This document shows positions 1,375-34,221 of a DNA stretch of 64,000 bases, piece by piece. The position numbers and the translations under genes are program-made. Positions within the stretch are counted from its first letter, which is position 1. Each line of letters opens with the position of its first letter. The stretch comes from an uncultured delta proteobacterium (GTDB lineage: Bacteria; Desulfobacterota; WTBG01; CAIYCZ01; CAIRTM01), in NCBI GenBank assembly GCA_963804955.1, contig CAWDSQ010000007.1, positions 256,001 to 320,000 of the forward strand. The letters run 5' to 3'. The notes beneath the pieces were generated by a model that ran no database searches, was not told the origin of the DNA, and saw only the letters and a list, made by a program, of their open reading frames with translations.

Positions 1375-1606
1375 GGCATCTCCTGACAGATACAGGCACC
1401 GGCGATTCAAGAAGTACGAAATCCGGCAGCAACTCACTGTGGAATATTCTACATAAGGATATAGTGCGAGGCCGGCTGTGAGTCAAGGGTACTGCCTGAA
1501 GCAAGTGCCCGCAGAGGGCGGTACGTAAAAACTGAAAAAGCAGCACGCTGCGAAGGTACGGCGTGGTTTCCGGCTTTAAGCGGTATGTACCGCACTGTCT
1601 TTCGGT

Positions 1607-1728
1607 GCAGCCGAAACACGGTTCAGTTTGCATCATAGGGGATTGATACTTGATGGAACATGCTGCAGCCGGATAGGTCACTGTGCTTTAGAACACACCG
1701 GGGCGAGATACCGGCGGTGAAAACGTGA
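1607..1728 (+). pseudogene. umuC (Pol V) C-terminal DUF4113 remnant, copy 1
   Basis: Translates RNTVQFAS*GIDT*WNMLQPDRSLCF...GEIPAVKT*; clearly homologous to 5112-5252 and 9242-9397. Confidence 0.7.
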
Positions 1729-1864
1729 GTCGGTCAGGTATCGCAGGCCGGATATTGATTTTATCATGGACGCCACCCGGGGATTCTGATACATACTACC
1801 TGCTCAAGCACCCGCCTGCCGGGGGAGGGCTTTTGCCTGCTGTACGAAGGGAGATTATACCGCT

Positions 1865-2341
1865 ATGCACCGTAAGATATTTAAAGCAATACTGAAAGCA
1901 ATGCCGAAATCCGGCGGCACGGATACCGGCCGCAGCAGCAGTGCAGACAGAGAGCTGCAGATTGCAACCTGCGCGCTTCTTCTTGACATTGCTCATGCTG
2001 ACAATGAGTTTTCACCGGAAGAGGAGCTGAAAATAGAGCAGCTTATGCGCGGTCATTTCGCGCTGTCGGAAGAGGCTTTTCTTGAAATAAAAAAGCTCTC
2101 CGAGCAGAAGCTCAAAGGCAGCATCGACCTGTGGCAGTTTGCCAAAACAATAAAAGAGCAGTATTCCTACCGGCAAAAAGAGAAAATTATCGAGATGCTG
2201 TGGGCTGTTATTTACACTGACGACTCGCTGCATGCCCACGAAGACTATCTTGTGCACAAGCTTGCAACAGTGCTCAACCTTGATCATGGAAAGCTGATTG
2301 ACGCAAAGATGAAAATCCTCGGGCAAAGAAAGGCGGACTGA
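1865..2341 (+). CDS. TerB-family protein
   Basis: ALLLDIAHADNEFSPEE...LWAVIYTDDSLHAHE pattern typical of TerB-like proteins. Confidence 0.85.
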   Translation: MHRKIFKAILKAMPKSGGTDTGRSSSADRELQIATCALLLDIAHADNEFSPEEELKIEQLMRGHFALSEEAFLEIKKLSEQKLKGSIDLWQFAKTIKEQYSYRQKEKIIEMLWAVIYTDDSLHAHEDYLVHKLATVLNLDHGKLIDAKMKILGQRKAD

Positions 2342-2475
2342 AACAGCAGGTATTGAAAGAGTTGCCCGCGAAAAAGCGGGACGTCACCCTGAATAGTTCC
2401 TGCAATACAGTTAATTCAGCAACGTTCCCTGGCTGCCCCTTGAAGTTATTGATATAGTTATGGGACGCACCCTGG

Positions 2476-3081
2476 TCATTCCCTGCCGTCATTCACCCTG
2501 TCTATATTCTGCCGCTGGCGTATTAAAAAATTGCTGCTCGGAGCCCCGGTGGATGGCGCTGGTGATGCATCCCCTGCAGCCCCCGCTTTATTGGGTGTTA
2601 CTACAGCTTTTGTAACAGTGCTGCTATTTTGACCCGGCGGTTTCAGCTGTGGATCTGACCAAACCCCCAGTGAACGTTTTTGGGCCAGGCTTACAGACAA
2701 ATCGTAGGGATGTTTTTTATTTTTCTCCAGTAACGGCCAGGCTAACCCTTTCCGGACAAGCTCCCGGTTAATGGAATCCTGCTTTTTGGAAGAAAAAACT
2801 TCTGCGGTTATGATATTTTCTTGAGAACTGATCATAGTAATTCTGAGCATCTGGTTTAAAGCAAGACTTTCAAGATAGCGCTTTGCCTCAGCCCCGAATT
2901 TTTGTTGAGGCTCCGGAGCAATAATATATGCCAGCTGCACGGTATACTGTTTTCCATTTGCACGTATCAAGAGCGTGTCAGCATCTACCACCGTCTCGCA
3001 GACCGCATTAAAGTTCTCGGCAAAGGCCGGACAGGCCAGGAGCATAATCCCTGCAATAAAGAAAAAATATTTTTTAAGCAT
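2476..3081 (-). CDS. Thermonuclease (SNase-like), secreted
   Basis: Signal peptide, VVDADTL, APEPQQKFGAEAK, INRELVRKGLAW, AQKRSLGVWSDP. Likely start MLKK at 3081 after GGGAG. Confidence 0.8.
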   Translation of the reverse strand: MLKKYFFFIAGIMLLACPAFAENFNAVCETVVDADTLLIRANGKQYTVQLAYIIAPEPQQKFGAEAKRYLESLALNQMLRITMISSQENIITAEVFSSKKQDSINRELVRKGLAWPLLEKNKKHPYDLSVSLAQKRSLGVWSDPQLKPPGQNSSTVTKAVVTPNKAGAAGDASPAPSTGAPSSNFLIRQRQNIDRVNDGRE

Positions 3082-3178
3082 ACTAATCTCTCCCCTGGTA
3101 GTGTTCTTAATGTCGTCAGCACACCAGCGCCACAGGCTATGTTCCCTGAAAAAGGCAGCCAATCAAGCCACCCTCTAT

Positions 3179-3344
3179 GAGATTGTGTCGCAATTAAAAA
3201 AAGATGTCATCTCGACCAAAGGGAGAGATCTTTGCCTGAAGCAAAAGCAAAGCCTTAAGATTGCTGCGCGGTGGCGCAACCTGCGGTCTCACCGCCTGCG
3301 GCGGATTCGAAATGACAGTACAAAACTAATTATGACACAGCCTC
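3179..3344. mobile_element. MITE family A copy 1 (GAG-ended TIRs, 3-bp TSD TAT)
   Basis: Ends GAGATTGTGTCGCAATT / AATTATGACACAGCCTC, TAT on both flanks, internal GTCATCTCGAC...TTCGAAATGAC REP-like pair. Confidence 0.9.
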
Positions 3345-3603
3345 TATGCTGGCGGTTGCTGCCTGCCTCCCCGCCACCGGCTCGAACCATCGCATGTCTC
3401 TTCTTGTTTAATAGGGTCAAAGTCAGGCTGCCGTCAAGGGCTTCATTGATATTTTCGGCATTATTGCAATAAATCTGAATGAGTTTCCGGCCATTGCTGC
3501 TGTGGTTTTGAGTAAAGAAAGGCGGCCTGAAACAGGCATTCATTGACAAAAAAAAACCGGCTGCAACAACCGCCGGCCAAAACACCTGAAAAACAGTGCT
3601 GTG

Positions 3604-3655
3604 GGGGTGTTGAAAAACCCCATTAAGTCATTCTGAGCGCAGCGAAGAATCTCTA
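3604..3655. repeat. Partial MITE end with REP half-site
   Basis: GGGGTGTTGAAAAACCCC followed by GTCATTCTGAGCGCAGCGAAGAATCT; the reverse complement of the latter occurs near 37817-37841. Confidence 0.55.
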
Positions 3656-3970
3656 TCTTTTTGAATTTTCTAAGCCCGAATGGGACCTTCACTTTGCAGA
3701 TGCGCTCCTGAAAACCATGGCTATCCCCTGTTTTCCTGTCCGCAAAAGCCGTCACCACCAAAAAAAATCATGAATAAAATTTTTTGCGTGCTATATAGAA
3801 ATCTTAAGCAGCAATGCACGGGCACAAGATAGTGCGCTAAAGACACTTCAGGGTCAGGAGTCTCGTCTGACCTCCGCCCCGCTGTGGAGCACAGAGTTTG
3901 TTGTAAATTTTTTATCATATCTACAAATAGAGTTAAATGAAGTTAAACGTATAAAGCAGAAGAGGGTTCT

Positions 3971-5002
3971 ATGCAGCTAATAAAATCAATATCCCTGCTG
4001 TCTGTGATCGGCTCTCTGTTTCTGTGCTCATCTGCCTTTGCCTATCAATCGGGGAACTTTACGTACACGGTAACAAACCAAACGGTCACAATCACTGGCT
4101 ATTCCGGTCCCGGCGGAGCAGTTGCAATTCCAGATACCATTACCAGCATGCCGGTAAGCGGCATCGGGGATAGTGCGTTTTATTGTCAAACCCGTATGAC
4201 CGGTGTCACCATCCCGAACAGCGTTACGAGGATTGGAGCACAGGCGTTTCGAAACTGCACCGGTTTGACCAGCGTTAGCATACCGGGAAGCGTTACGAGC
4301 ATTGGGACATATGCGTTTCAATTTTGCAGCGGCCTGACCAGCCTTACCATACAAAATGGCGTTACGAGCATTGGCTACAGTGCGTTTGGAAATTGCACGG
4401 CCTTAATAAGCGTAACCATACCGGGCAGTGTGAGAAGCATTGCTGGTTCTGCGTTTTCATACTGCGACAGTTTGAGCGGTGCATATTTTTACGGAAATGC
4501 GCCGGCGATGGGGCCGAATGTTTTCCTTAACTGCGCAGGCGGTTTTACCGTTTACTATACTGCCGGAGCCACGGGGTTTACCAATCCGTGGTATGGCTAT
4601 CCAACGGAGGAGTCTAACCCGCCTCCGTCAACCAGCACCACTGTGCCGGTAGCGACGACAGTGCCAGCAAGCACAACGACGAAGCCGTCCACGTCAACGA
4701 CGTCCGCATCAACGAGTATAAGCACAACATCATCATCGGCTGCTTCATCAACAACTACTACTCCGCCGAAGTCCACCACAACCTCTGCACCGCCGAAGCC
4801 AACCACCTCCACTACCAGTGCCTGCAACGTATCAGGTGATACCGATGGCGACGGTATGCCCGATACGCTCGATAACTGCCCGAATGGTTTCAATCCCAAT
4901 CAGCTGGATGCGAATGGTAACGACATAGGAGATTGCTGCGACCCGGCACCCGGCTGCGGCGGCGACGGACAGGCAACATGTGATACGGTGTGCGGGCAGT
5001 AG
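3971..5002 (+). CDS. BspA-type LRR surface protein with S/T/P linker and thrombospondin type-3-like repeat
   Basis: Signal peptide, repeated IPxSVTSIGxxAFxxCxGLT, Thr/Ser-rich stalk, DTDGDGMPDTLDNCP...NPNQLDANGNDIGD. Confidence 0.9.
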   Translation: MQLIKSISLLSVIGSLFLCSSAFAYQSGNFTYTVTNQTVTITGYSGPGGAVAIPDTITSMPVSGIGDSAFYCQTRMTGVTIPNSVTRIGAQAFRNCTGLTSVSIPGSVTSIGTYAFQFCSGLTSLTIQNGVTSIGYSAFGNCTALISVTIPGSVRSIAGSAFSYCDSLSGAYFYGNAPAMGPNVFLNCAGGFTVYYTAGATGFTNPWYGYPTEESNPPPSTSTTVPVATTVPASTTTKPSTSTTSASTSISTTSSSAASSTTTTPPKSTTTSAPPKPTTSTTSACNVSGDTDGDGMPDTLDNCPNGFNPNQLDANGNDIGDCCDPAPGCGGDGQATCDTVCGQ

Positions 5003-5043
5003 TCGGAGTATGGGGTAACGGATTAATCCTCTGAAGAATCATC

Positions 5044-5081
5044 AAGGCCCAACTACCAGAGATGGTGGTTGGGCCTTTTTT
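5044..5081 (+). terminator. Rho-independent terminator after the LRR gene
   Basis: AAGGCCCAACTACCA-gaga-TGGTGGTTGGGCCTT hairpin followed by a T run. Confidence 0.8.
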
Positions 5082-5111
5082 GTAAAAGTCCACAGGAGAT
5101 GTCACTACAGT

Positions 5112-5252
5112 GATGCTCTGAGTCAATGCTATGACCGCAGCAAGGTTCAGTTTGCATCATCTGGGATTGCTAAGCGCAGGAAAATGCTGCAGTCGTATAA
5201 ATCCCCGTGCCACACCGCAAGCTGGAGCGGGATACCGGAGGGAAGGCGATAG
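5112..5252 (+). pseudogene. umuC C-terminal DUF4113 remnant, copy 2
   Basis: Translates DALSQCYDRSKVQFASSGIAKRRKMLQSYKSPCHTASWSGIP. Confidence 0.7.
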
Positions 5253-5415
5253 TTAAGGCAGATGGCGCAGGCCGGATAGTGATTTAATCATGGTCTTTAT
5301 ATGCTCTTGAGACCAAGCCGTGCAAGAAGCTATTGTGTTAAACAGCCTCCCTTTTTCTCCCATCCCCTGCAGCCCTGAGGATGAGCCATGAGCAGAGCTG
5401 TGTGCGCCACCTCTG

Positions 5416-5823
5416 CTACAGCACCGCCTGCTGTTTATACAGCGCATTGGGCAGGCACTGCATGGTCGCTTTGATCAGATCTTCCTGCTGGAAAGGTTTG
5501 CTCAGATATCCGTCAAACATGCCGCTTATCCGTTCCGTCACGTCACCGGAGGCATGGCCGGTCATGACCAGCAGCGGAATGTTTTTAACAGCTTTATCAG
5601 TTTTCAAAATGACGACCGCCTCGTAGCCGTTCATCACCGGCATCTGTATGTCCAGCAGAATCAGGTCGGGCGCGCACGCGCGGGCCATATCAACAGCATC
5701 CCGGCCATTAGCTCCCTCGATCAGATCAAAGTCGTACTCATCGTAAAACAATTTGATCAGCTCACGGATATGCGCAGTGTCATCGACAATCAGTATGCGC
5801 GGCTTTCCAGACATTGCAGTCAT
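5416..5823 (-). CDS. Single-domain response regulator (receiver)
   Basis: ILIVDD, PDLILLDIQMPVMNG, YLSKPF. Confidence 0.92.
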   Translation of the reverse strand: MTAMSGKPRILIVDDTAHIRELIKLFYDEYDFDLIEGANGRDAVDMARACAPDLILLDIQMPVMNGYEAVVILKTDKAVKNIPLLVMTGHASGDVTERISGMFDGYLSKPFQQEDLIKATMQCLPNALYKQQAVL

Positions 5824-6091
5824 AGCAGTCCCCTTCTTTCATTGGATTAACTCTACAGAAGTACAACCCTGTCCTTCGTGCAAAAAAACCCCTTCCTGAA
5901 GCTGAAAAAAGGCCGGCTGTGACATACATTTTCACTACCGGCAGTCTCTGATTATTCAGCACCTGTGCTGTCTGCCGTTATGCCCTCATGCGCTCTTTTC
6001 GGTTGTCTGCGACGCTGCGTTTCTCTGCATGTTTTCAATACAGAGAGCACCTCCGGCCATAGAGAACAAAACATGTTTTATTCAATTTTTA

Positions 6092-6109
6092 TTACATATA
6101 CTGTGCCAA
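6092..6109 (-). promoter_or_regulatory. Possible sigma54 -24/-12 promoter upstream of the receiver gene
   Basis: Minus strand TTGGCAC-AGTAT-ATGTA; the -12 box is imperfect. Confidence 0.4.
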
Positions 6110-6506
6110 CAACAATGCCGTCTTTGCTTGCAACTCCATTGACAATAAAAAATTTAAAAATCATTCTAAATTAAATGATTTTTTTTGAAAAATATCTGGA
6201 AGGATTCTTTTTCAGTCCTGAGAAATGATGGCTAAAGCCGGCATCTATTCAAAATGAGTAATAATTGGCAAATAAAATTACTCATAATGAATACGACATG
6301 CTGCTGTAAAAAACCGTATCTCTCTCCATCAAAAAACAACAGTACAAAACAGCCCCCCGAGATGTGAACTGAAAAGCCGGCCACGACAGGTCAGGCCGGA
6401 GGGCAGCCAGAGGCCCGATGGTTTACATACTGTTCCGGCAGGTGCAGGCGGCAACAAGGCAAGACCGGGGAGGGGCAAGGCTGCGAAAATTCCAAACTGC
6501 TAAGCT

Positions 6507-6869
6507 TTACTGGAACGCAAGGGATACTTCCGGATTTCTTTTAACAAGCTGGCGGATCATGATGTCGCTTAATATACTCGTGAACTTTATGCCGCCTGTT
6601 ACCTTATATGGGCTTTCCTTTACCCACATGACTTCGGCCTCAACAGGAATATGCAGGATCGTGTTTGGTATGGAAATTTCCATTACAAGAACAACTCCGC
6701 GCTTAATGCTTTCAGTCTGCGGAAAGTTTACAGTCGCACCGCTTGAGCTCAGATTTATAATCCGGCATTCATACTGCCGCGTGTCCTGTTCCCTGATGGA
6801 GCAGCGCGTTTTGAGGTTAACATCAAAACGAGCCTTGGCGCGCATATGTGCATATGAAGATTTTCCCAT
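6507..6869 (-). CDS. PilZ domain protein
   Basis: RAKARF (RxxxR) and NLSSSG (D/NxSxxG) motifs. Confidence 0.85.
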   Translation of the reverse strand: MGKSSYAHMRAKARFDVNLKTRCSIREQDTRQYECRIINLSSSGATVNFPQTESIKRGVVLVMEISIPNTILHIPVEAEVMWVKESPYKVTGGIKFTSILSDIMIRQLVKRNPEVSLAFQ

Positions 6870-7458
6870 ATTTTAATTGTTCCTGTGCCGATTTTAAATT
6901 GTATGTAATAAAAAGTAAAAATGCAGACTAAAAGAGGTCTGCCCGGACAACATAGCCTGCTCTGTTTTTTATCCGACATCTGCCTGTGGGACGAAGAATA
7001 GAAAAAAACACCCCATAAAGCAATAGCACCAGAGGCTATTATTTAGGCACTAAGGGGCCTGAGGAGCGGGGGCAGAAAAAATATTGCCAATCATGTCTGT
7101 TGCGGGCCTGAACCGGTGCCTGCATTTCGGGCGAGACATTCCCGAACCGGCATTACGAGATTTACAGCCCTTCGAATATTTTGAACAAAACGATAAAAAA
7201 GAGCGGCTGTGCGTGTCGTGCACATCCGCCCTGTATCATCTGACTCTTTTGATGCCGATTTAAAATACCTGCACCCGGTTTTCCACCTGCAAATGCGGCA
7301 CCCGTTTGAACTCCTTTGCATTGCTGGCAACAGGCAACTACCGACTTCTGAAATTTTATGTTTAGCCAGAAAGTCAAGAAACAATCAGCGGCTGTTGTCC
7401 CCCTATTGTTGTTCGCAGGCCTGATAGTAATTTATGTATGAACGTCCCCTGGTCAGCC

Positions 7459-7752
7459 CTATGCGCCAACTGCGGCACGCAGTTCTCCAACTTTTATTTT
7501 CTTCTGCCCGGCATGCCAGAGGTCGAGTTTTGACTGCATATACAACCAGCTTTCCGGCGTGGTGCCTGTTGCAAGGGCGATTTTTACGGCCATGTCCGGT
7601 GTCACAGGACCCCTGCCGTTTAAAATTGCAGACAGTGTTTTACGCGACGTGCGCAAACGTTTTGCGGCTTCCGTTATCGTAAGTCCCAGGGGGACCAAAA
7701 CATCCTCCCGTAAAACTTCTCCGGGATGTGTGGGTTTGCGTTTGTTAATCAT
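7459..7752 (-). CDS. higA: HigA-family antitoxin
   Basis: PTHPGEVLREDVL...SRKTLSAILNGR...PESWLYMQ...DLW. Confidence 0.93.
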   Translation of the reverse strand: MINKRKPTHPGEVLREDVLVPLGLTITEAAKRLRTSRKTLSAILNGRGPVTPDMAVKIALATGTTPESWLYMQSKLDLWHAGQKKIKVGELRAAVGA

Positions 7753-7774
7753 GATGTGTGCTCCTTGAAAATAG

Positions 7775-8053
7775 TCAGTGATAATCCCTGTAATCGACGA
7801 TCACAGCATCTGCCCCTTCAAATTGAAAAGTAACCCGCCAGTTGCCGTTTACCCGGACCGACCAGGAGTCCTTCTCTTTGCCCGGCAGCCGGTGCAGTTT
7901 AAAGCCGGGCAGATTCATGTCCTCGGGGCATGCTGATGCGTCCAGGCGGTCAAGTATGCGGGCCAGCCTGGGGGCATGGTCCGGCATTATTTTACTGCAG
8001 TCATCATGGTGGAAAAACTTTTCCAGCCCTTTATGCCTGAATGATTTAATCAT
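7775..8053 (-). CDS. higB: HigB (RelE-superfamily) toxin
   Basis: MIKSFRHKGLEKFF...WSVRVNGNWRVTFQF...VDYRDYH. Confidence 0.93.
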   Translation of the reverse strand: MIKSFRHKGLEKFFHHDDCSKIMPDHAPRLARILDRLDASACPEDMNLPGFKLHRLPGKEKDSWSVRVNGNWRVTFQFEGADAVIVDYRDYH

Positions 8054-8069
8054 GTCTCCATATATAACA

Positions 8070-8088
8070 TGTAACCTAATGCGTTACA
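8070..8088. promoter_or_regulatory. Putative HigA operator
   Basis: Palindrome TGTAAC-N7-GTTACA just upstream of higB. Confidence 0.6.
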
Positions 8089-8261
8089 AGCAGTTTTAGC
8101 AATTGCCAGTGTATGCTGCTGTTGGCATGCGGATCAGCATGAAAACTGTGCATAGCGCGGATAGTAAAAACAAAGCGTGCTGACACCTGTTCTTGTTTTT
8201 TCGTTCTATGGTTTTCCCGATGGATGTTCCCGGTTGTTTTTTAGACCCACTAAAATACAGG

Positions 8262-8289
8262 TTGCATAATATATAAAAACTTATATAAT
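8262..8289 (+). promoter_or_regulatory. sigma70 promoter with overlapping palindromic operator of relE-higA
   Basis: TTGCAT-N16-TATAAT overlapping TATATAA-N4-TTATATA. Confidence 0.55.
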
Positions 8290-8512
8290 TGAAAATATGA
8301 ATACTGTCGTGAAAGCACTTAAGTTCATTGGGTCGAGTCTGGACGATCTACGGAATTTCCCGGATGAAGCCCGGCGGGCTGCCGGATTTGAGTTTCATGC
8401 GGTTCAAAGCGGTTTTGATCCAAACGACTGGAAGCCCATGCAGGCCATCGGCCCCGGCGTAAAAGAGATTCGTATTCATGTGCTGGGCGAGTGGCGCGTT
8501 ATCTATGTAGCT

Positions 8513-8762
8513 TAGCCAACAACCACCCGCATAGAGCCTGTGTCGCAATTTACTTTGCTGTCATCTCGACCGAAGGGAGAGATCTTTGTAGTAAGTAAAA
8601 TCAAGGGGCTTAAGATTTCTCACCGCCTGCGGCGGATTCGAAATGACATTAATAAATCAATTGTGACACAGCCTCATAGCGGGGGGGGGATTTCGCTAAA
8701 GCGAAATCAAAAAACACATAGTGTTTATGTTGCCTTTTTCAGAAACGCATGTTTCTGAAATC
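8513..8762. mobile_element. Hairpin-rich non-autonomous insertion (IS200/IS605 PATE-like), itself containing MITE A
   Basis: About 105 bp once MITE A is removed; hairpins CCCGC..GCGGG, GATTTCGC-taaa-GCGAAATC and TTTCAGAAAC-gcat-GTTTCTGAAA; no TIR or TSD seen. Confidence 0.6.
8534..8675. mobile_element. MITE family A copy 2 (TSD ATA)
   Basis: GAGCCTGTGTCGCAATT...AATTGTGACACAGCCTC flanked by ATA; nearly identical to 16349-16489. Confidence 0.92.
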
Positions 8763-8876
8763 AGTTCAGCGACGCAGTTTATGTGCTGCACGCATTCAAG
8801 AAAAAAAGTCAAAAAACGAGCCGCCAGGATATCGAACTGGCGCGTCAAAGGTACAACCGCATTGGAGGTTAAAGTA

Positions 8877-9161
8877 ATGAACGATGACATTATTAAATCT
8901 TCCGGCAGCGTTTTTGCTGATCTCGGTTTTCCACCGGATGAAGCCGCTATTCTTCAGATGCGTGCCGACCTTATGGCTGATCTGCGCAAACTCATCAAAG
9001 CGAAAAAATTAACGCAGGCCAAAGCGGCAACAATTTTCGGGGTGACGCAGTCCAGGGTATCAGATCTCATGCGCGGCAAATGGGAGAGATTCAGTCTTGA
9101 AATGCTCATTACGCTTGCAACAAAGGCGGGCATGCATGTCAGCTTGAAAACAGCGGCATAA
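8877..9161 (+). CDS. XRE/HigA2-like HTH antitoxin
   Basis: SSGSVFADLGF...LTQAKAATIFGVTQSRVSDLMRGK...FSLEML; ATG 8877 after GGAGG. Confidence 0.9.
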   Translation: MNDDIIKSSGSVFADLGFPPDEAAILQMRADLMADLRKLIKAKKLTQAKAATIFGVTQSRVSDLMRGKWERFSLEMLITLATKAGMHVSLKTAA

Positions 9162-9241
9162 CGCTGGCTTCAAAACAAAGGGCGCTGACCCCTGTTCTTG
9201 TTTTTGCTGAGCGGAGAGGGAATTTATTAGATCAAAAAGCC

Positions 9242-9397
9242 ATGATGCAGGCAATAGATTCCCTGAATCAACGCTATGGCCGCAACACGGTTCAGTTTGC
9301 ATCATCGGGCATAGATAAGCGCTGGAAAATGCTGCAGTCGCAAAAATCGCCGTGCTTTACCACATGACGGGGCGAGATACCGGCTGTGAAGGCATGA
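9242..9397 (+). pseudogene. umuC C-terminal DUF4113 remnant, copy 3 (best preserved)
   Basis: MMQAIDSLNQRYGRNTVQFASSGIDKRWKMLQSQKSPCFTT*RGEIPAVKA* matches the UmuC tail pattern D..N.R.GR..V.FA..G....W.M.....SP..TT. Confidence 0.82.
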
Positions 9398-9433
9398 GAC
9401 AGACAGGCGGTGCAGGCCAGATAGTGATTTATG

Positions 9434-9536
9434 TATGAACGCCCCGCAGTCCTACTCAAACAATTCAACTAATTCAACAACGTTAAGTTCCTAAAAAATT
9501 TTCTTGAAAAGCATTAAATACAACCGTCCCCTTTTA
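9434..9536 (+). repeat. About 103-bp direct repeat, copy 1 (compound junction motif)
   Basis: TATGAACGCCCCGCAG...CAATTCAACTAATTCAACAACGTT...AACCGTCCCCTTTTA; recurs at 14422-14525 with about 7 substitutions and 1 indel (counted by eye). Confidence 0.9.
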
Positions 9537-9602
9537 GATGTTTACAGCCAATTTCTGCAACCTGGGGGGGGGAGGGCGTTTGTGTACTTTGTAGGATGGC
9601 CC

Positions 9603-10723
9603 CTAAGTGCCGTCATTCTCAACAAGTGAATAGCTTGTGCTTCTGCCTCCTGCGGGATCCTTCTTCAGCAGGTTCTGTTTCACAAGGTCATCAATATCGC
9701 GACCGGCAGTATCCTGAGAACATTTTGTGATTTTTGCCCATTTTGACGACGTGAGTTTTCCTTCGAATCCATCAATCAATAGATTGAGCATATGTCGTTG
9801 GCGATCGTTCAACGGCTGCTGCGCAAGTTTTTTCCAAAGAGTTGCTTTGCGGATGACATTTGCCAATATGGTCTCGGCGCCATCGAACGCTCGATTGAGG
9901 CAGCTCAGGAACCAATCGAGATATTCCGTGATATCAAGATCGCCTTTCTGCATTTCTTCCAGACGAGTCGTAGTATTTTCCCTGTTCTGCCTTTATCTGG
10001 GCAGAGATGCTGTAAAAGCGCTGAGCGCTGCGCTCTGAGCGAGCCAGCATCATGTCAGCGAGCGCGCGACCGATGCGACCGTTTCCATCGTCGAAGGGAT
10101 GAATGGTCTCAAACCAAAGATGCGCTGTGGCGGCTTTAAGAATGGGATCGACATTGGGTTGCTCTGTATTAAACCACTTTATGAACGCACCCATTTCTTT
10201 ATCGATACGCGTTGCGGCAGGCGCTTCGTAGTGAACATGTTCGCGTCCATAGGGGCCGGAAACAACCTGCATGGGCCCGGATTCAGCCGTTCGCCATTTG
10301 CCGACAGTAATCTTCAAAAGGCCGCTGTATCCTGTCGGGAACAATGCTGCGTGCCAACCGAAGAGCCTCTCTTTTGTAATCGGTTTATCGTAGTTCTGTG
10401 TTGCATCGATGATCATTTGAACAACACCATCGACATTTCTGTCTGACGGTGTCAGTGCGCCGATATCGACGCCAAGCCGCCGCGCGAGAGAAGAACGAAC
10501 CTGATCCCGATTGAGCTGCTGCCCTTCAATTTCGCTGGATTTTACGACTTCCTCCGTCAGGGTGTCGCAAAACGGCTTCGTCGCGCAGCTTGATGCCGAA
10601 AGCCTCTATGCGCCCAAAGAGCTGCCCTTGCCGATAACGTACAGCAGCGAGTTTTTGTGCAAGATGGTCGTTATCCCAACGAAAATGGGGCCAATCGGCT
10701 CTTTGATATATGTAGGTAGTCAT
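9603..10723 (-). CDS. Fic-family protein (DUF4172 N-terminus, wHTH C-terminus), frameshifted twice
   Basis: YIYQRADWPHFRWD start, HPFDDGNGRIGR Fic motif, GGRSTSY end; spread over three frames. Confidence 0.88.
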
Positions 10724-10822
10724 AATCTCCGCACCTTTCGCGTAGATTATAGCACTTTTTCTCCGCATAAGCAATCATATTCGCCGCATATATTGCGGAG
10801 AATAAAGCGGCTAATCTCCGCA
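10724..10822. promoter_or_regulatory. Iterated TCTCCGCA/TGCGGAGA boxes upstream of fic
   Basis: Half-sites at about 10726, 10760, 10781, 10794 (inverted) and 10815. Confidence 0.6.
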
Positions 10823-11062
10823 ATTGATTGATCCTTGCTTTGGGCTGGGCAGACTAGAGATGAGGGTTGTTCAATACAAAGTTTGCCGCAGGAAGCACTT
10901 CCTGGGTGGGGGGATTTAGTAAGTGGTTGCCTGCTCTAACTCCCGCACGTTGTGCAAAATATGTATTCAGGAGCTGCGGAAAAGCTAAGTCAACAACGTC
11001 CCCCTAGTTAGACCTTTCTGCTCTATGTTAGTAGATGATAAAACCCTTTTTCAAATACCCCT

Positions 11063-12061
11063 TTACAGCCGGTTGCGACGTCTGGCTGAATGCCGATCCA
11101 TGCGCGAATGTTCGTCATCCTGCTTCCTGCCTGCGGGCTTTGCAAAAGCTGCAAGGTGCAGTATGTGCCCCTGGTGCTCAAAGGCAAACCCGATCACCGA
11201 GTCCGATTCAAGCCGTATGTCTTCACCCTCAGATACGGATTTGCGATGCTCTGCTGTTGCATCTGCCATGCCGGCGATAAACTGCCTTGCTGCGTCACCA
11301 TGAGATCCTTCAAGCTTCAGATCAGGATCATACCAGTCCGTGGCATCAAGGGCGTAGCTCTTCACAAGCTTTGCAAACACCTTCCCGAACGTGTCGGGTC
11401 CGGCAAAGCTGTCAAGGCCTGCAACTTTCCCGTTTATCAGAAATACAGCACCGGCCTGATTTTCGGCCCTGGTAAAGTTTTGCAGGTAGTCTTCAAGGGA
11501 AATTCTGTCCTTTTCGTAAATTTCTGACATGGCCATGCTACCGGATACGGCCTTCCTGCGCCGCGCCTTCTTGTCTATGGAATTCCATATCTCTCCCTGG
11601 TCAGAACAATAGGAGGCATTAATTTTGAGCGAGTGGTTTACGTGAACGGCCTTCTCCGCCCTGATATTCGGACAGAGCAGGCGCTCATGGCTGAAAAACT
11701 TGCCGGAGGCGTAGGACCACCGGCCCTGTTCCACGCAGCTCACCGGGATTATCACCTTTGACATGGCAGCGATGAGAATGGTGGCGTTGACGATACGGTT
11801 CTGCTTGGCCCCTACCAGCTCTTCGCCGTCCAGGATGAGCACCTGCTTGCTTGCCTTATTGATCACCTGCAGCTCAGGCACTGAGCCTCCCGTGCTCACC
11901 TCTCCAACTTCGATGAGCCCGCCCTGCAGCGCCTCGTCAAGAAGCAGGTAGTCGGCCTGTTCCGTACCACTGGTCAAAAGCGGCACCATGCTCAAATTTT
12001 TATAGGCTTGAGCCGGCCCCGTGGTGATGGTTGTGATATAGGTTTTAAGACTTTCGTTCAT
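11063..12061 (-). CDS. ARPP-1/DUF6569-like protein
   Basis: GSVPELQVIN...LILDGEELVGAKQNRIVN...IPVSCVEQGRW...QGEIW pattern. Confidence 0.8.
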   Translation of the reverse strand: MNESLKTYITTITTGPAQAYKNLSMVPLLTSGTEQADYLLLDEALQGGLIEVGEVSTGGSVPELQVINKASKQVLILDGEELVGAKQNRIVNATILIAAMSKVIIPVSCVEQGRWSYASGKFFSHERLLCPNIRAEKAVHVNHSLKINASYCSDQGEIWNSIDKKARRRKAVSGSMAMSEIYEKDRISLEDYLQNFTRAENQAGAVFLINGKVAGLDSFAGPDTFGKVFAKLVKSYALDATDWYDPDLKLEGSHGDAARQFIAGMADATAEHRKSVSEGEDIRLESDSVIGFAFEHQGHILHLAAFAKPAGRKQDDEHSRMDRHSARRRNRL

Positions 12062-12099
12062 GGCCTCTCCTTTGACTTTTCCGGTTAATCTTACCTTTA

Positions 12100-12131
12100 A
12101 GAATAGCAGGGCACTGTGTCAGGGAAGGTCA
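12100..12131 (-). promoter_or_regulatory. Candidate WYL-activated promoter of the ARPP-1 gene
   Basis: Minus strand TGACC-ttccc-TGACAC-N10-TATTCT. Confidence 0.45.
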
Positions 12132-12219
12132 AAACGAATTAAAAAATATTGTTATTTATTGTAAAAAATTGATATATTTTAATTTCATTGTGGTCTTTTT
12201 TTACGTCAGGGAGGATTTT

Positions 12220-13197
12220 ATGCCACGAGGAGATCAGCTGGCGCGTCAGTGGAAAATTATTCAGACCATAGTCTCGTCAAAAAAAGGCAAAACGGCAACC
12301 GAGCTGGCAACCGAACTCGAAGCAAACCCGCGAACCGTCTACCGCGACCTTCAGGCATTGCAGACAGCGGGGTTTCCGATATACACGGAAAGAGTGGGCG
12401 ATAAAAATTGCTGGACACTGCTTGATGCCATTAAAAACCAGATCCCGGTCCCGTTCGCATTTACCGAGCTCATGGCTCTGTATTTTTCAACCGATATGCT
12501 CAAAGCCCTTCACAATACAATTTTTTATGAAAACCTGGACTCACTGGCTAAAAAAATAAAAACCATCCTGCCTCCCGAGTCGCACAGATTCCTTGAAAAC
12601 GCGCGCAAGACTTTTTCTGTTCAGAAGAAGCACTATAAGGACTACGGCGGCTTCAAAGAGATAATCAACAAGGCTTCAGATGCCGCGCTGAAGCAGAAAT
12701 GCGTCACACTTGTCTACTGCTCCATGCCGGAGAAAAAAGAGACCCGGCGCACCGTAGATCCCTACCGCATCTGGTTTTTCAATGAGACCTTTTACCTGAT
12801 CGGCTACTGCCACCTGCGCAAGGAGCTCCGCTCTTTTGTGCTCGACCGGGTCAAATCCCTCACCGTTACTGATGAGGAGTTTGTCATCCCTGAAGATTTT
12901 GATTTTGATGCCCTGATGAAGGGCAGCTTCGGCGTTATCACCGGCCCGACTGAATCCGTGCGGATACAATTTGAGAAAGAAGTGGCCGGCTATATTGAAG
13001 AAAAGGTGTGGCACAGCAGCCAGCGCATTAACCGGGCCTCTGACGGGGCAATTATCTTTGAGGCCGACGTTGCAATAAATGAAGAATTTAAAAACTGGAT
13101 TTTAAACTGGGGATCAAACGCGATGGTTCTGGCGCCCGCATCGCTTGTTGCGGAGATTCAGGCAGAGATCGCCAAAATGGCTAACAGGTATAGCTGA
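12220..13197 (+). CDS. wHTH-WYL-WCX transcriptional regulator (PafC/YafY-like)
   Basis: RTVYRDLQALQTAGFPI HTH, RRTVDPY...FYLIGYCHLRKELRSFVLDRV, WILNWGSNAMVLAP; ATG 12220 after GGAGG. Confidence 0.93.
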   Translation: MPRGDQLARQWKIIQTIVSSKKGKTATELATELEANPRTVYRDLQALQTAGFPIYTERVGDKNCWTLLDAIKNQIPVPFAFTELMALYFSTDMLKALHNTIFYENLDSLAKKIKTILPPESHRFLENARKTFSVQKKHYKDYGGFKEIINKASDAALKQKCVTLVYCSMPEKKETRRTVDPYRIWFFNETFYLIGYCHLRKELRSFVLDRVKSLTVTDEEFVIPEDFDFDALMKGSFGVITGPTESVRIQFEKEVAGYIEEKVWHSSQRINRASDGAIIFEADVAINEEFKNWILNWGSNAMVLAPASLVAEIQAEIAKMANRYS

Positions 13198-13364
13198 TTT
13201 ATGGATGGATGCCCCCAGGATATTTCCTGCAGCACAGATAATTCAACTAATTCAACAACGCCCTTTATGCTCCCAATATGAAGCTAATAAAGAGGGGGAT
13301 GCAGGTAACCCCTATTCCAAGTGGCCACGACTAGGGGGTTTTGGGTGGCCGCCGGGGTTTATTT

Positions 13365-13775
13365 TTAAATAATACTTAAAATCGGCTCAAGACGCGGGTC
13401 AATGGCTTTCAAAAGTTTGGAAAATTTATCCAGGGATGGCTTTACTTTACCCTGTTCATATCTGCTGTAGGCAGCCGGTGAATTTGAACCAAGATTTTTC
13501 GCAACATCACGTACGCTCAAGTGAAGGCTGCTGCGTTGCTGTTTGAGCGCCAGGGCCATAAGCAGGGTGTCATTGCTGGAGCCCACCATGAAAGTATCTG
13601 CCGCCCCCTCTGTAACGGAAACAGTAAAGCCTTTTTCATCAATGATTGATTCAATGGCATCCTTTGCCATAAAATAAGCATCTTTTCGGCTCTTTCCCTG
13701 AGTATAAATCTTCAGCAAGGGTATTTCTACTGCCCACCATTTACCTGACCGGACAAGTTTGCCTTCTATTTTCAT
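13365..13775 (-). CDS. hicB: HicB-like antitoxin with C-terminal HTH
   Basis: WAVEIPLLKIYTQGKSRKDAYFMAKDAI plus XRE-like YSRYEQGKVKPS. Confidence 0.85.
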   Translation of the reverse strand: MKIEGKLVRSGKWWAVEIPLLKIYTQGKSRKDAYFMAKDAIESIIDEKGFTVSVTEGAADTFMVGSSNDTLLMALALKQQRSSLHLSVRDVAKNLGSNSPAAYSRYEQGKVKPSLDKFSKLLKAIDPRLEPILSII

Positions 13776-13972
13776 GTGCTCTCCTTTCTCTTGTTACCCG
13801 GATTGGCCAGCGCTGTTTTTACGATGGCCTCAGCGGTATATTCATTAATCTCTGTGTGCCGGGGCACCGGAATTTTCTGCTCTCCGTTTGTCCATTTCTC
13901 ATGGCTGCCGCCCTCGCCGTATTTCCACCAGCCAAGTTCTTGCAACCGCTTGATGAGAACTTTCTTTTTCAT
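13772..13972 (-). CDS. hicA: HicA toxin
   Basis: LQELGW...GGSHEKW...VPRHTEI; 4-bp overlap with hicB; upstream TGTATA-N8-TATACA palindrome at 13982-14001. Confidence 0.9.
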   Translation of the reverse strand: MKKKVLIKRLQELGWWKYGEGGSHEKWTNGEQKIPVPRHTEINEYTAEAIVKTALANPGNKRKEST

Positions 13973-14135
13973 ATTTTATATTGTATACATATTTATATAC
14001 ATTGCAAGTGTAAATAAACCGCTTCATTTTATTAGTGGCTGTTGTCCCGGATAAATTCCGTGAAGTGTCTGTCAAACAGGGGTAAGTTCAGCTGTCCACG
14101 ATTATTGCCTGAAAAACAAAACACCCTTTAATCCA

Positions 14136-14371
14136 GGATACAGTTTAAGAAAGAAGTGGCCGGCTATATTGAAGAAAAGGTGTGGCACAGCAGCCAGCGC
14201 ATAACCCGGGCACCTGACGGGTCAATTATCTTTGAGGCCGACGTTGCAATAAATGAAGAATTTAAAAACTGGATTTTAAACTGGGGATCAAACGCGATGG
14301 TTCTTGCGCCCGCATCGCTTGTCTCGGAGATTCAGGCTGAGATCGCCAGAATGGCTGGAAGGTACAGCTGA
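14136..14371 (+). pseudogene. Duplicated 3' end of the WYL gene
   Basis: 236-bp direct repeat of 12962-13197 with 16 mismatches by my count, ending at the same stop codon. Confidence 0.93.
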
Positions 14372-14421
14372 GGAGATTTGCTAGAAAACGAAACGGACTG
14401 AGCGATTTCAATTTGCTACAA

Positions 14422-14525
14422 TATGAACGCCTCGCAGACCTACTCAAGCAATTCAACTAATTCAACAACGTTATGCTCCCTAAAAAATTTTCTTGAAAAG
14501 GATTAAATAGAACCGTCCCCTTTTA
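14422..14525 (+). repeat. About 104-bp direct repeat, copy 2
   Basis: Matches 9434-9536 and ends AACCGTCCCCTTTTA. Confidence 0.9.
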
Positions 14526-14612
14526 CTTAAAGGAACTATTGGCGACAAATCCTTCGGCTTCCTGAGCGGCATCAAGCATGTGTTGAAGTCTTATTCTGTC
14601 ATCAGGCCTCAT
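14523..14612 (-). pseudogene. HEPN/DUF86 toxin truncated after 29 codons
   Basis: [29 protein letters not shown] overlaps the MNT stop; its stop codon is supplied by the end of the repeat. Confidence 0.8.
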
Positions 14613-14907
14613 ACTGCACCTCGGCCGTACTCAGAATCTCTTTGCGAAAGTACCGGCTTAATTCCTGCGGGGTGCGAAGGTCGGCCTTGTTGCCGAGCAA
14701 ATCGCTGAGTTCATTTTCCATATGGCAAAGAGAAAAAAAACCCGGCAGCATTTCATCGTAAAATTCAACCAGCAGATCAATATCGCTGTCCGGCCTCATC
14801 GCCCCTTTCAGGGCAGAGCCGAAAAGAGATAACCTTTTAATGCCATTGCGCCGGCAGAATTCAATGAGCCGGTCACGCGAAATTCGCTGATCGATTATGT
14901 TCGACAT
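14602..14907 (-). CDS. Minimal nucleotidyltransferase (MNT) antitoxin
   Basis: LFGSALKG...[10 protein letters not shown] (GSx10DxD). Confidence 0.92.
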
Positions 14908-15060
14908 ACATGCCTCGCCATTAATTTAGAGGGGTCCGGGTATCCACCCCTGGCTAATCAGGGACTCCCTGTTTGCTGTTTATAGACCTCTGCTTTTATT
15001 TCACCGCAAAAATTCCGTTGTTGACACAGTGCACAAACTCCCCCTTTTTGCATGTGTATT

Positions 15061-16014
15061 TTACCCCAACTCCTTATATTCTGTCAGCCTTTTAAATCGC
15101 CACTCCAGCCCGTCCATGCGGGGATAATATTTTTTATCCCTCGGCAGGATGATGGGCTTTTTATCCAGATCGAGCAATTCCTGGTAATCGCGGTTGCGTT
15201 TGTCGAGAAGCTTTGAAACATGCCACTTCAAATCCGGGCCGGGGGAAAGGATGTTTTTGTCCAGCGCCCAGTGAAAGCTGGGGGCAAGGGCAATGCCGTT
15301 GCAGGGATCATTGTCGCGTGATTCGGAGAAGGGGATAATATGCGCGGCTTCAACCATGACCGACCCATCGGGCAGGATCACCCGCCAGCCCGAGGCGGCG
15401 CAGCGGTAGTCATATGCTTCGCGCACCACGCGTGAAAACGCCGCATCGCGGACTTTGTCGTTGTAGGTGCTGCAACATTCAGCCACTTTTTCAGGTTCCT
15501 TCAGGCAGTTTTCATATACTGCTATCTGCTGCTCTTCGGCTACAACGGTGCGGATCTGTTCGCGGCTTGCCGGGAACCACCGGTCTATGAGAGTTTGTCG
15601 CAAAATATCGCGATCCGGGGCAGAGGAGATCAGGCTGAACAGATCATCATCAAGGAATGCATATTCAAAATTTTCCGTTATCTGCGATGGGCCGCGCACG
15701 GTTGACAGCGCTGCGACTACAGCCTCGCGGCCGGGAATCGGCTTGAGATGCCAGAAGGATTCCCCTTTGTATAGATGAAAAAATGGAAAATACGGATTGC
15801 AGGCATCGCCTGGCTGCTGCACTGTCTGGAAAAATGATTTAAAAATATCAAGAAGGTTTTGGTTATAGAGGATTTTATTTTCTTTGAGAAACCCTGCCTC
15901 GGCCAGGGCCAGTACGGCCAGCAGCATGACCGGCTTGTGGGGGCTGACATGCTCCCCTGAACGGTTTACATGCAGCTTCGAGAAGGCGTGTATGTAGTAT
16001 TCAAGATCAGGCAT
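15061..16014 (-). CDS. HNH restriction endonuclease with putative N-terminal sulfur-binding (SBD-like) domain
   Basis: N-terminal PHKPVMLLA and NPYFPFFHL; C-terminal RDAAFSRVVREAYDYRC...EAAHIIP...NGIAL...HWALD. Confidence 0.82.
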   Translation of the reverse strand: MPDLEYYIHAFSKLHVNRSGEHVSPHKPVMLLAVLALAEAGFLKENKILYNQNLLDIFKSFFQTVQQPGDACNPYFPFFHLYKGESFWHLKPIPGREAVVAALSTVRGPSQITENFEYAFLDDDLFSLISSAPDRDILRQTLIDRWFPASREQIRTVVAEEQQIAVYENCLKEPEKVAECCSTYNDKVRDAAFSRVVREAYDYRCAASGWRVILPDGSVMVEAAHIIPFSESRDNDPCNGIALAPSFHWALDKNILSPGPDLKWHVSKLLDKRNRDYQELLDLDKKPIILPRDKKYYPRMDGLEWRFKRLTEYKELG

Positions 16015-16138
16015 GGCAGCTCATGTAATAATGAATATTATTGAACTGTTCTTGTGAAGCAGGAAGAGTATAAAATAGAATAAAAGGCTAAAGCAACTAC
16101 TCTTTTGTTATTTTTAAATAAATCAGTAAAATCTTTGC

Positions 16139-16298
16139 GAGCTGTGAGTTGGGAGTCGTGAGTTGGGAGTTGTGAGTTCGGAGTTCGGAGCGCAGGGGCA
16201 CGGTGCACGTGCCGTAAAGTTCGGAGTTGGGAGTTGGGAGCGTAGGGGCACGGTGCGCGTGCCGTAAAGTTGGGAGTCGTGAGTTCGGAGTTCGGAGT
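16139..16298. repeat. Tandem heptamer repeats (GAGTTGG/GAGTTCG) with two GTAG-type REP hairpins
   Basis: Repeated GAGT(T/C)(G/C)(G/T) units and two copies of G(C/T)AGGGGCACGGTGC(A/G)CGTGCCGTAA. Confidence 0.8.
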
Positions 16299-16348
16299 AA
16301 AAATTCAGCAGCCGGGAGTCAGAAAAAACAGCCACCTCTCCCCCATCA

Positions 16349-16489
16349 GAGACTGTGTCGCAATTAACTTTGCTGTCATCTCGACCGAAGGGAGAGATCT
16401 TTGTAGTAAGTAAAATCAAGGGCTTAAGATTTCTCACCGCCTGCGGCGGATTCGAAATGACATTAATAAATCAATTGTGACACAGCCTC
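16349..16489. mobile_element. MITE family A copy 3 (TSD TCA)
   Basis: GAGACTGTGTCGCAATT...AATTGTGACACAGCCTC flanked by TCA, inserted in the loop of a CTCCCCC..GGGGGAG hairpin. Confidence 0.92.
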
Positions 16490-16560
16490 TCAGTGGCGTA
16501 GGGGGAGAAAACCGGCAAGTTGGAAATTGCTGCACTACGGAGGCAGAAGATTGCTCATTA

Positions 16561-16602
16561 TGGCGGGGACGAATCCCGACTGCAATCGGGACGACCTTCG
16601 GC
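16561..16602 (-). repeat. Degenerate duplicate of the tRNA-Asp 3' half (att-like)
   Basis: TGGCGGGGACGA and CGACCTTCGGC match the tRNA; the T-arm is replaced by the palindrome ATCCCGACTGCAATCGGGA. Confidence 0.7.
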
Positions 16603-16628
16603 CTCAGGTTCTGCTCTTACCCTTAACT

Positions 16629-16662
16629 AAAAAAAGCACTTAACCGATGAGGCTAAGTGCTT
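16629..16662 (-). terminator. Terminator after the tRNA-Val/Asp pair
   Basis: AAGCACTTA..TAAGTGCTT stem with an A run on the plus strand. Confidence 0.7.
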
Positions 16663-16670
16663 GAAAAATG

Positions 16671-16747
16671 TGGCGGGGACGACGGGACTCGAACCCGCGA
16701 CCTTCGGCGTGACAGGCCGACGTACTAACCAACTGTACTACGCCCCC
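16671..16747 (-). tRNA. tRNA-Asp(GTC), CCA encoded
   Basis: Cloverleaf with GGGGGCG/CGTCCCC acceptor, anticodon loop CTGTCAC, GGTTCGAGTCC T-arm. Confidence 0.97.
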
Positions 16748-32998: not shown

Positions 32999-33451
32999 AT
33001 GTTTTTGGCTTTCGTGTGTGCCGCATGGCTGCTTTGCTGCCTGCTGGCACCGGCAAGCTTTGCGCAGGCCGAAAGCCGGCAGCGCAGCCAGTTCAGCCGC
33101 GCGGAGATCAACTGGGCCACAACCTGGATCAACAATGCCCTGCCCAACTTTATGCAAAAGGGCATCATTGTCAAAATCAGCACAAAGGATGACGGCTTTC
33201 AGGTGTTTGCAGGCAAGCCCTGGTATGAGTTGACCTTTACGCAGCAGGGCGAATTTCTGAAAAATCTTGCCCGGTCCCGTGAAATAATCGGCCATCCGCC
33301 GCAGTTTTCGGTTGTTGATGTCGATTCCTCTGCAACCATTGCCCGCGTATCCTGGTCGAACATCGAAATACTCACCCCCACTGAGGGCTTCAAGTACTAT
33401 CAGCCCCCGGCAGATGATGCCGCAACAACCACGACAACCACAGCGTACTGA
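32999..33451 (+). CDS. Exported hypothetical protein
   Basis: Signal peptide ending ASFA, 150 aa. Confidence 0.7.
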   Translation: MFLAFVCAAWLLCCLLAPASFAQAESRQRSQFSRAEINWATTWINNALPNFMQKGIIVKISTKDDGFQVFAGKPWYELTFTQQGEFLKNLARSREIIGHPPQFSVVDVDSSATIARVSWSNIEILTPTEGFKYYQPPADDAATTTTTTAY

Positions 33452-33455
33452 CTTC

Positions 33456-34200: not shown

Positions 34201-34221
34201 CTGCACCGGCTTTGGCCGGAC

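Follow-up and report, generated by a model that had tools for sequence, protein, structure and literature searches.

Co-oriented short repeats among the toxin-antitoxin and defence genes of an uncultured delta proteobacterium are probably solo terminal inverted repeats of TIRYT/TIRtron elements

In the first 16.6 kb of a 64,000-nucleotide (nt) stretch of an uncultured delta proteobacterium genome (GenBank assembly GCA_963804955.1, contig CAWDSQ010000007.1, positions 256,001 to 320,000; the window in what follows), about 11 gene modules, several of them toxin-antitoxin (TA) or defence genes, are separated by short motifs of five types, A to E. We conclude that these motifs are probably solo copies of the terminal inverted repeats (TIRs) of TIRYT/TIRtron elements, which carry RAYT-like Y1/HUH transposase genes, and that at least four TIR families have been piled up in one orientation, often head-to-tail. 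The identity of the units, their common orientation and the position of gene junctions beside them are matters of observation. The names TIRYT and TIRtron were given to RAYT-like genes with long TIRs sharing the motif GGGGWSAS (Di Nocera et al. 2013, PMC3733652), whose TIR families are moderately abundant and occur as singles, dimers or clusters; 20 of 26 TIRYTs fall in subclass 2.1, with C-termini that are DnaA-C-like or helix-turn-helix (HTH) (Quentin et al. 2018, PMC6006769). Published features of these and other families are cited here from excerpts of the respective papers. Our literature search met the two names in these two papers only, and neither, in its excerpted text, reports an activity. 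The genome under study (G000, 4.26 Mb) is represented by an 87% complete assembly, in which the window lies on contig C7 (window position 14,527 is C7:270,527); ORFs were called by a crude greedy rule. Relatives' genomes are numbered G001, G002, G003 and so on, and compared loci carry L numbers.

All five motif types were located on the + strand, at or no more than about 10 nt from where the initial annotation had placed them, and the 14 units detected in the window all point one way, as it had described. From left to right, a B unit holding a solo right-end TIR (1753-1782, nhmmer E=0.0011) is followed by a diverged A unit (2401-2435, 73% to the reference copy, E=0.00013), by a B-like unit, degenerate and next to the stop of an SNase gene (about 2445-2478, recognised by eye), and by a degenerate B unit that has lost its CCCC end (5267-5300, 68% to the reference copy and missed by the profile at E<0.5). 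An E unit (7385-7411, E=0.051) and a B unit (7425-7456, E=1.9e-05) come next, and then two D copies, 91% identical by repeat search (8167-8200 and 9172-9205). The D unit itself (AAAGGGCGCTGACCCC, 9172-9192) matches, by eye, 19 of 22 positions of the TIR of a 223-amino-acid (aa) Y1 gene in a relative (L032). A head-to-tail stack at 9422-9537, found by nhmmer, is composed of B (9422-9452), A (9458-9488) and C (9513-9537), and has its duplicate at 14422-14527, where nhmmer and repeat search found a B tail, an A unit (14446-14476) and a C unit (14502-14527). Between the stacks lie the 3' half of an A unit (10984-11008, E=0.017), a weak B unit (13193-13219, E=0.15) followed by an A unit (13237-13269), both from nhmmer, and an E unit (14032-14058) at the right end of a HicB/HicA pair. 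No motifs had been noticed after 16.6 kb, and the genome profile scans likewise list no unit between C7:270,527 and C7:442,540. The exact 21-mer of A occurs four times in 4.26 Mb, three of them in one 5-kb part of the window itself; this rarity and clustering, with the single orientation of the 14 window units, exclude chance. The bare core CGTCCCCT is not over-represented genome-wide (45 observed, 41.2 expected), and ACGTCCCC was observed 33 times against 19.4 expected. Tandem runs of 9-nt words (AATTCAACC, AATCAAACT and similar) were also seen at C19:49.5k, C30:181.07k, C20:96.7k, C20:15.3k, C13:84.4k and C7:492.4k, mostly just upstream of apparent gene starts; they have the word AATTCAAC in common with motif A and do not carry its ACGTCCCC end.

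A census with four nhmmer profiles over G000 gave 45 units, of which 5 flank two Y1 genes and 40 are solo; 14 of the 45 lie in the window. Motif A accounts for about 21 units, concentrated at a few places, while B has 12, C has 5 and E has 9. When solo units occur in clusters of at least two, 34 of 36 share the orientation of their cluster, irrespective of family: 14/14 in the window, 2/2 at C5:61-64k, 6/6 at C5:197-210k, 2/2 at C7:197-201k, 2/2 at C7:442-450k, 3/3 on C29, 3/4 on C11 and 2/3 at C30:148-162k. A replication-strand bias was rejected as an account, the C-run being on the C-rich strand in 32 of 38 units but in no more than 9 of 13 clusters, a figure that falls short of significance. 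One orthologous array, that of G001, was compared, along with a few single sites. This array (contig C278) also adjoins tRNA-Asp and has HicAB with its E unit, HNH_2, VapC and the B-tail/A/C stack in common with the window, while module order and extra modules differ; all units detected in it have one orientation. Co-oriented pairs to quartets were further found in relatives and in named metagenome-assembled genomes (MAGs; L006, L080, L085, L087/88, L089, L091, L102, L129), with exceptions to co-orientation at L039, L094 and L048.

The initial annotation had placed the responsible enzyme elsewhere in the genome, naming an HUH/Y1 REP-associated transposase or a tyrosine recombinase as candidates. 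Exactly two Y1_Tnp matches were returned by the search of G000, both away from the window contig, and each gene is flanked by inverted copies of a window motif. The intact gene at C30:145773-146471 (232 aa, PF01797 5.2e-19) lies between inverted copies of motif C, one to the left (145685-145708, - strand), 65 nt upstream, and two to the right (146465-146502, + strand), overlapping the stop. The other gene, C20:65070-66133, is in three frames, with motif B inverted on the left (twice) and on the right, and its last part encodes a DnaA-C-like HTH. Since C is present in only 5 copies genome-wide and B in 12, such flanking of both Y1 genes is not due to chance. The B solos hold, as judged by eye, the inner sequence of the right end and not that of the left end with its promoter. 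An ORF6N gene was considered as the target of the C30 element, but comparison with a second, likewise truncated ORF6N gene gave no information. The tyrosine-recombinase candidate found no support, and the sites, which had been thought to be of a new kind, belong to the published TIR repeat class of TIRYTs/TIRtrons as the excerpts of PMC3733652 and PMC6006769 describe it.

Motif A was linked to Y1 genes in other genomes. An exact-pattern scan covering genomes of 185,579 species returned 56 loci, 35 of them with titles naming Thermodesulfobacteriota, Desulfobacterales or similar, or delta/Proteobacteria MAGs. On three contigs of other Thermodesulfobacteriota MAGs (L113/L114, L103, L116), A stands in inverted pairs around Y1 genes of 324-339 aa, and a fourth A-flanked Y1 gene was found at L043. 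B-type TIRs were found at L044, L045 and L046, and B-type repeats surround Y1 genes of 335 aa. Y1 genes are present in 20 of 21 genomes, with up to 15 per genome in relatives, and 19 of 25 examined in relatives are surrounded by inverted repeats (10-nt seed) beginning GGGGAC, GGGGTC or AGGGAC. Some E variants (AAAGGGCGCTGTTGTCCCC) resemble the TIR of the 223-aa Y1 gene of L032, and as end-repeats, A, B, C and probably D and E belong to different sub-families of a single transposase family. At L048 (G005:C138, 4081-4421), an inverted A pair 340 nt apart surrounds only the C-terminal HTH of a Y1 gene and is a decayed TIRtron; a similar inverted pair, of 275 nt, was seen at L082. Thus miniature inverted-pair forms exist alongside the solo units.

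The encoded proteins fit the RAYT-like class. PF01797 matched the A- and B-type genes, as well as the 223- and 316-aa genes of other genomes, at 9.3e-12 to 1.7e-16. The best NCBIfam match was NF047646 REP_Tyr_transpos at 57-80 bits (79.9 at most), all just below the 80-bit cut-off, and NF033573 transpos_IS200 scored 28-31 bits against a cut-off of 55. Bac_DnaA_C matched at 4e-05 to 4e-06, under the Pfam cut-off, in the C20 fragment, L113 and L044, and was not matched in the 232-aa C30 protein.

Of the systems compared, TIRYTs/TIRtrons are the closest. In both, a RAYT-related Y1/HUH gene is framed by long inverted repeats beginning GGGG(A/T)(C/G), the repeats are also dispersed at moderate copy number, and, as in subclass 2.1, the 320-340 aa forms end in a DnaA-like HTH. 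The units described here are 20-35 nt long with outer ends GGGG(A/T)C...(G/A)(T/A)CCCC. The D/E-type and relatives' TIRs (GGGGACAG, GGGGTCAC, GGGGTCAG, GGGGTCAA) fit GGGGWSAS, while A, B and C ends (GGGGACGT, GGGGACGG) agree at 6-7 of 8 positions, having G where the published motif has A. Unlike what the excerpts describe, several TIR families are mixed within an array here, among TA/defence genes and points of gene truncation. We did not find polar, multi-family, head-to-tail stacking among TA/defence modules with cuts at C-run ends described in the TIRYT literature, as compared by way of text descriptions in excerpts. REP/BIME/REPIN repeats with their RAYTs (PMC3333891, PMC2817692, PMC3116915) share the domesticated-looking Y1 gene, the inverted short-repeat flanks and the intergenic dispersal; REP sequences also cluster, and the C-run followed by T in our units fits the rule of cleavage between C and T (PMC3333891). 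On the other hand, the units have no hairpin and no GTAG tag, families number 5-21 copies and not hundreds (45 units in 4.26 Mb, compared with a usual >100 per genome), and relatives hold up to 15 Y1 genes and not one. The REP-type hairpin reading was rejected on the first of these grounds, given that DNA folding z-scores of A, B, C, D, E and the stack ranged from -1.35 to +2.09, none beating shuffles, and no GTAG was seen in unit sequences. IS200/IS605 elements have a Y1 HUH enzyme and an expected strand-specific single-strand mechanism that leads to polar insertions, but they have subterminal hairpins and no TIRs (PMC3333891), whereas the ends here are inverted repeats without hairpins.

Genes had been reported to end beside the motifs or to be cut at them, and this was borne out. 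The higA stop lies 3 nt past a B unit (7456/7459), and a 29-codon frame on the - strand, read by eye as the start of HEPN/DUF86, stops at the outer end of a C unit (about 14528). The third umuC relic starts directly after the CCCC of D, and this D-umuC junction is repeated in an 80-nt relic (8120-8200). A site on C24 is filled in G000, by 100 nt and a B unit, and empty in G003, with the right junction at CCCC; at the C29 and C8 orthologous sites, the breakpoints are gene ends and give little information. Homology between G000 and G001 around HicAB stops 11 nt past E in both genomes, the VapBC module of G001 begins 8 nt past an E-like unit, and the left edge of the C unit falls between C and T in all four copies seen. 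On the upstream side, by comparison, the units run on without a break from old gene ends, namely that of umuC in three cases here and one in G002, that of HTH_37 in two cases here and one in G003, and that of WYL in two cases. This polarity of an old upstream side and breakpoints after the C-run agrees with the action of an enzyme that would cut on the 3' side of a unit and attach the resulting end to new DNA.

The umuC relics, all three with stops, occupy the + strand at 1590-1700 (the DUF4113 part, interrupted by in-frame stops; 64.5% over 31 aa by tblastn), 5112-5219 (tblastn 69% over 36 aa) and 9193-9399 (DUF4113 6.7e-18, 81% to the intact umuC of G004). Together with a B unit, they form a 184-nt block present in three copies, at 1610, 5134 and 9279, in which motif B lies 14 nt past the true stop of the umuC gene end (DUF4113, 6.7e-18); the B unit at 1753-1782 follows relic 1 with a spacer of this 14-nt class. 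The umuC 3' end was rejected as the attachment site of an integrating element, since the intact umuDC operons of G001 and G004 have no downstream B, and a full umuC is also absent to the left of the relics. For these two reasons, the umuC end plus B can be read from the sequence as a single old junction that may later have been copied or carried along. Other blocks are duplicated as well. The stacks at 9434-9536 and 14422-14525 are 88-96% alike, their C units at 9513 and 14502 having in common a 25-nt left extension from 9490 and 14479, and the WYL 3' end of 12962-13197 recurs as a 236-nt block at 14136-14371 (93%, + strand, WCX 1e-15). The relic at 8120-8200 (+), made up of the HTH_37 antitoxin 3' end, a D unit and the first 13 nt of the umuC relic, is a 91% duplicate of the junction at 9120-9205, with the likeness further upstream judged by reading. 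The repetition is therefore in part due to duplicated composite blocks and not to independent sites.

These observations suggest a mechanism by analogy with TnpA-REP of E. coli, which cuts single strands between C and T or CC and T, beside and distant from bound REP, and also performs strand transfer (PMC3333891). A TIRYT acting in trans would bind a unit in single-stranded DNA and cut just 3' of its C-run, at a site matching the TnpA-REP rule, and the freed 3' end would be joined to other cut DNA. Each unit would then keep its old upstream neighbour, such as the 3' ends of umuC, WYL and HTH_37, while the downstream side would be replaced, deleted or newly inserted, and repeated rounds could yield a polar stack of blocks consisting of a fragment and a unit. 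The site is a low-GC flexible island adjoining tRNA-Asp that holds TA/defence modules and many gene relics.

Several points weigh against the reading of the units as TIRYT end-repeats with breakage at their C-runs. Cleavage between CCCC and T by a TIRYT is postulated by analogy with TnpA-REP. Full TIRtrons are flanked by AAA directly before GGGGAC and by TTT directly after GTCCCC; they are not inserted 3' of GTCCCC-like sequence, so that insertion beside a resident end fails as a rule for autonomous elements and was rejected. In the 87% complete assembly, no A-type Y1 gene was found, though A is the commonest unit. Some module limits lie 50-130 nt from the nearest unit (the left edge of HicAB in G000, the 3' edge of SNase and the C8 locus), and the HicAB copies of G019 and G011 have no recognisable adjoining unit, those of G001 and G015 having one alongside. 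Part of the co-orientation was inherited through block duplication, and a binomial estimate puts the C-rich-strand bias of clusters at about p=0.13.

A further possibility, which we regard as doubtful, is that TIRYTs run an active, integron-like HUH cassette system in which the end of the C-run before T is a single polar site: the enzyme would cut at two co-oriented ends, and a single-stranded circle of cargo plus one unit would be pasted 3' of another unit. The whole of 1.7-14.5 kb does parse into blocks of cargo plus a 3' unit, for example ARPP-1/WYL exactly between the A units at 10984-11008 and 13237-13269, and in the B-A-C and E-B stacks units follow one another without cargo. G000 and G001 share both limits of HicAB with E, and its neighbours differ at either side. 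In at least three other genomes, TA pairs stand between co-oriented A or B units, namely YafQ and HicAB (L080, L085) and YafQ/Phd (L088), and VapBC stands between units at L048. By Pfam on the two nearest ORFs per site, a TA/defence neighbour is found at 10 of 33 solo sites, compared with 1 of 20 random intergenic gaps (Fisher p=0.037). However, this association is driven by the window, with 5 of 7 sites there and 5 of 26 elsewhere, and without the window the comparison with the 20 gaps gives p=0.21; outside it, 21 of 26 sites lack any TA/defence domain, and the neighbours are mostly surface proteins, enzymes and broken genes, typical of flexible genome. Left limits of modules are often 50-100 nt off the upstream unit, and units survive only in intergenic gaps, so that a position between modules is partly forced. 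Neither a circle junction nor an exact gain or loss of a cassette bounded by two units was seen; public reads (run shares of 0.20 or less) gave contigs, from 4 runs, that are of low depth and too short to tell. Two contig joints of low depth, one linking about 1772 with 7272 and the other 7398 with 16165, coincide with unit ends or come close to them; their sides are short, and the contigs are from other populations. On present evidence, the TA/defence genes are residents of the same tolerant island and not proven cargo.

It is very unlikely that the array arose as tandem integrase-type islands at the tRNA-Asp 3' end, with the integrase since lost and the TIR units as bystanders in a tolerant region. 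The island, which ends at tRNA-Asp and tRNA-Val, has a lower GC content (48.5% versus 53.2%), and tRNA-Asp lies, with a partial copy of its 3' end, at 16560-16747 on the - strand, at the island boundary. The partial copy (TGGCGGGGACGA...GGGACGACCTTCGGC, about 16560-16602) is matched in G001, where two tRNA-Asp 3'-end copies (L053, G001:C278) frame a 1.5-kb segment adjoining the tRNA, by eye a TA pair; such copies have the look of former att repeats from an integrase-type island. Yet tRNA repeats are confined to the last 0.1-1.6 kb by the tRNA and separate none of the roughly 11 modules. The seven Phage_integrase matches of G000 include none on C7, and a domain scan of 53 ORFs at 16.9-64 kb found no recombinase, transposase or TA domain, in keeping with the earlier statement that no recombinase is in view. 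Such islands would also leave the uniform polarity across unit families and the gene cuts at C-run ends unexplained. The sequence CGTCCCC occurs within the tRNA-Asp 3' end itself, on the strand opposite to the units.

Integron-like or other tyrosine-recombinase sites (attC, dif-like) are highly improbable in spite of the cassette-like layout, with one-directional short sites between small, often TA-type modules and many promoterless or broken genes as in chromosomal integron arrays, and in spite of an IntI-like gene elsewhere (C32), because no R''(RYYYAAC)...R'(GTTRRRY) palindrome was found on either strand of the island by a crude regex scan (as had been claimed for these sites), no hairpin is predicted, no IntI gene is adjacent (no PF00589 match on C7, and TIGR02249 only on other contigs with no single piece above the cut-off), genes lie on both strands, C32 has no units, and the units can be shown to be TIRs of Y1 genes. 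This sole IntI-like gene (C32:99809-101233, - strand) consists of two pieces of 182.7 and 132.3 bits (cut-off 265), about 670 nt apart, with one TAG; near it, the crude scan gave one raw attC-like match per strand and none past the pairing filter.

Pfam identified TerB, SNase, a leucine-rich repeat protein, a response regulator, PilZ, HigBA, Gp49/HTH_37, Fic, ARPP-1 with WYL, HicAB, MNT and HNH_2 between the motifs. A VapC (PIN) relic with an internal deletion (7239-7373, -) is 92% identical to G001 over 97 nt, beyond which G001 has a PIN gene; VapBC is intact there. It is followed by a HigA/HigB pair (7459-8053, -; HTH_3 1.3e-10, HigB-like_toxin 3.5e-25), a Gp49(HigB-like) toxin with an HTH_37 antitoxin (8297-9161, +; 2.6e-09 and 7.8e-21) and a Fic/DOC gene in three frames (9603-10774, -; Fic 8e-18, DUF4172 8.1e-15). 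The ARPP-1 gene (-) and the WYL/WCX regulator (+), at 11063-13197, lie between two co-oriented A units (2.2e-92 and 9.4e-19). The HicB/HicA pair (13359-14058, -), with the E unit at its right end, is 92% identical to that of G001 with identical limits, and genes for an MNT nucleotidyltransferase and an HNH_2 endonuclease follow at 14602-16014 (-; NTP_transf_2 1.2e-12, HNH_2 1.4e-07). Housekeeping genes, among them those for Lon, ClpX and ClpP, fill the remainder of the window.

Genes for Lon, UbiD and an AAA_26 protein are broken into overlapping frames (16929-19329, 29042-29783 and 33318-34404), and metagenome contigs drop single bases at 8876, 9962/9965 and 10566 in the HTH_37 and Fic region, the last two positions being in the Fic gene. 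The G000 assembly probably carries indel errors, and the Fic/DOC frameshifts are probably among them. In view of these likely frameshift errors, in the split Lon gene and at the bases dropped from Fic, labelling Fic and the C20 transposase as pseudogenes is unsafe.

Other repeats were also observed in the island. A miniature inverted-repeat transposable element (MITE) of 170-190 nt, with terminal inverted repeats (GGCTGTGTCGCAATT...), has three copies (3168-3358, 8523-8689 and 16338-16503), the second of which interrupts the Gp49/HigB-like toxin gene; an allele without it, joining 8508/8512 to 8763/8765, was found in contigs of two metagenome runs. A tandem tract of 7-nt and 50-nt repeats (GAGTTGG/GAGTTCG) at 16133-16317, upstream of the HNH_2 gene, has a shorter, differing counterpart in G001. 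A 44-nt element with ends CCCCTA...TAGGGG occupies 13315-13358, between motif A and hicB; it is another small repeat family, with copies of 93% identity in G001:C131, G004:C402 and G004:C386 and of 82-83% in G009.

Should the doubtful cassette system exist, each array at tRNA-Asp or another tolerant site would serve as a growing library of TA/defence modules shared across Thermodesulfobacteriota. If the units are inert relics, the finding amounts to a repeat family of ordinary kind within a flexible island. If polar stacks and cuts at C-run ends are footprints of TIRYTs, this locus and its G001 counterpart supply both the substrates (A, B and C) and an intact enzyme (the C30 gene). These would open a route to what the widespread RAYT-like proteins do, and to whether a single-stranded DNA transposase can build TA/defence arrays without an integrase.

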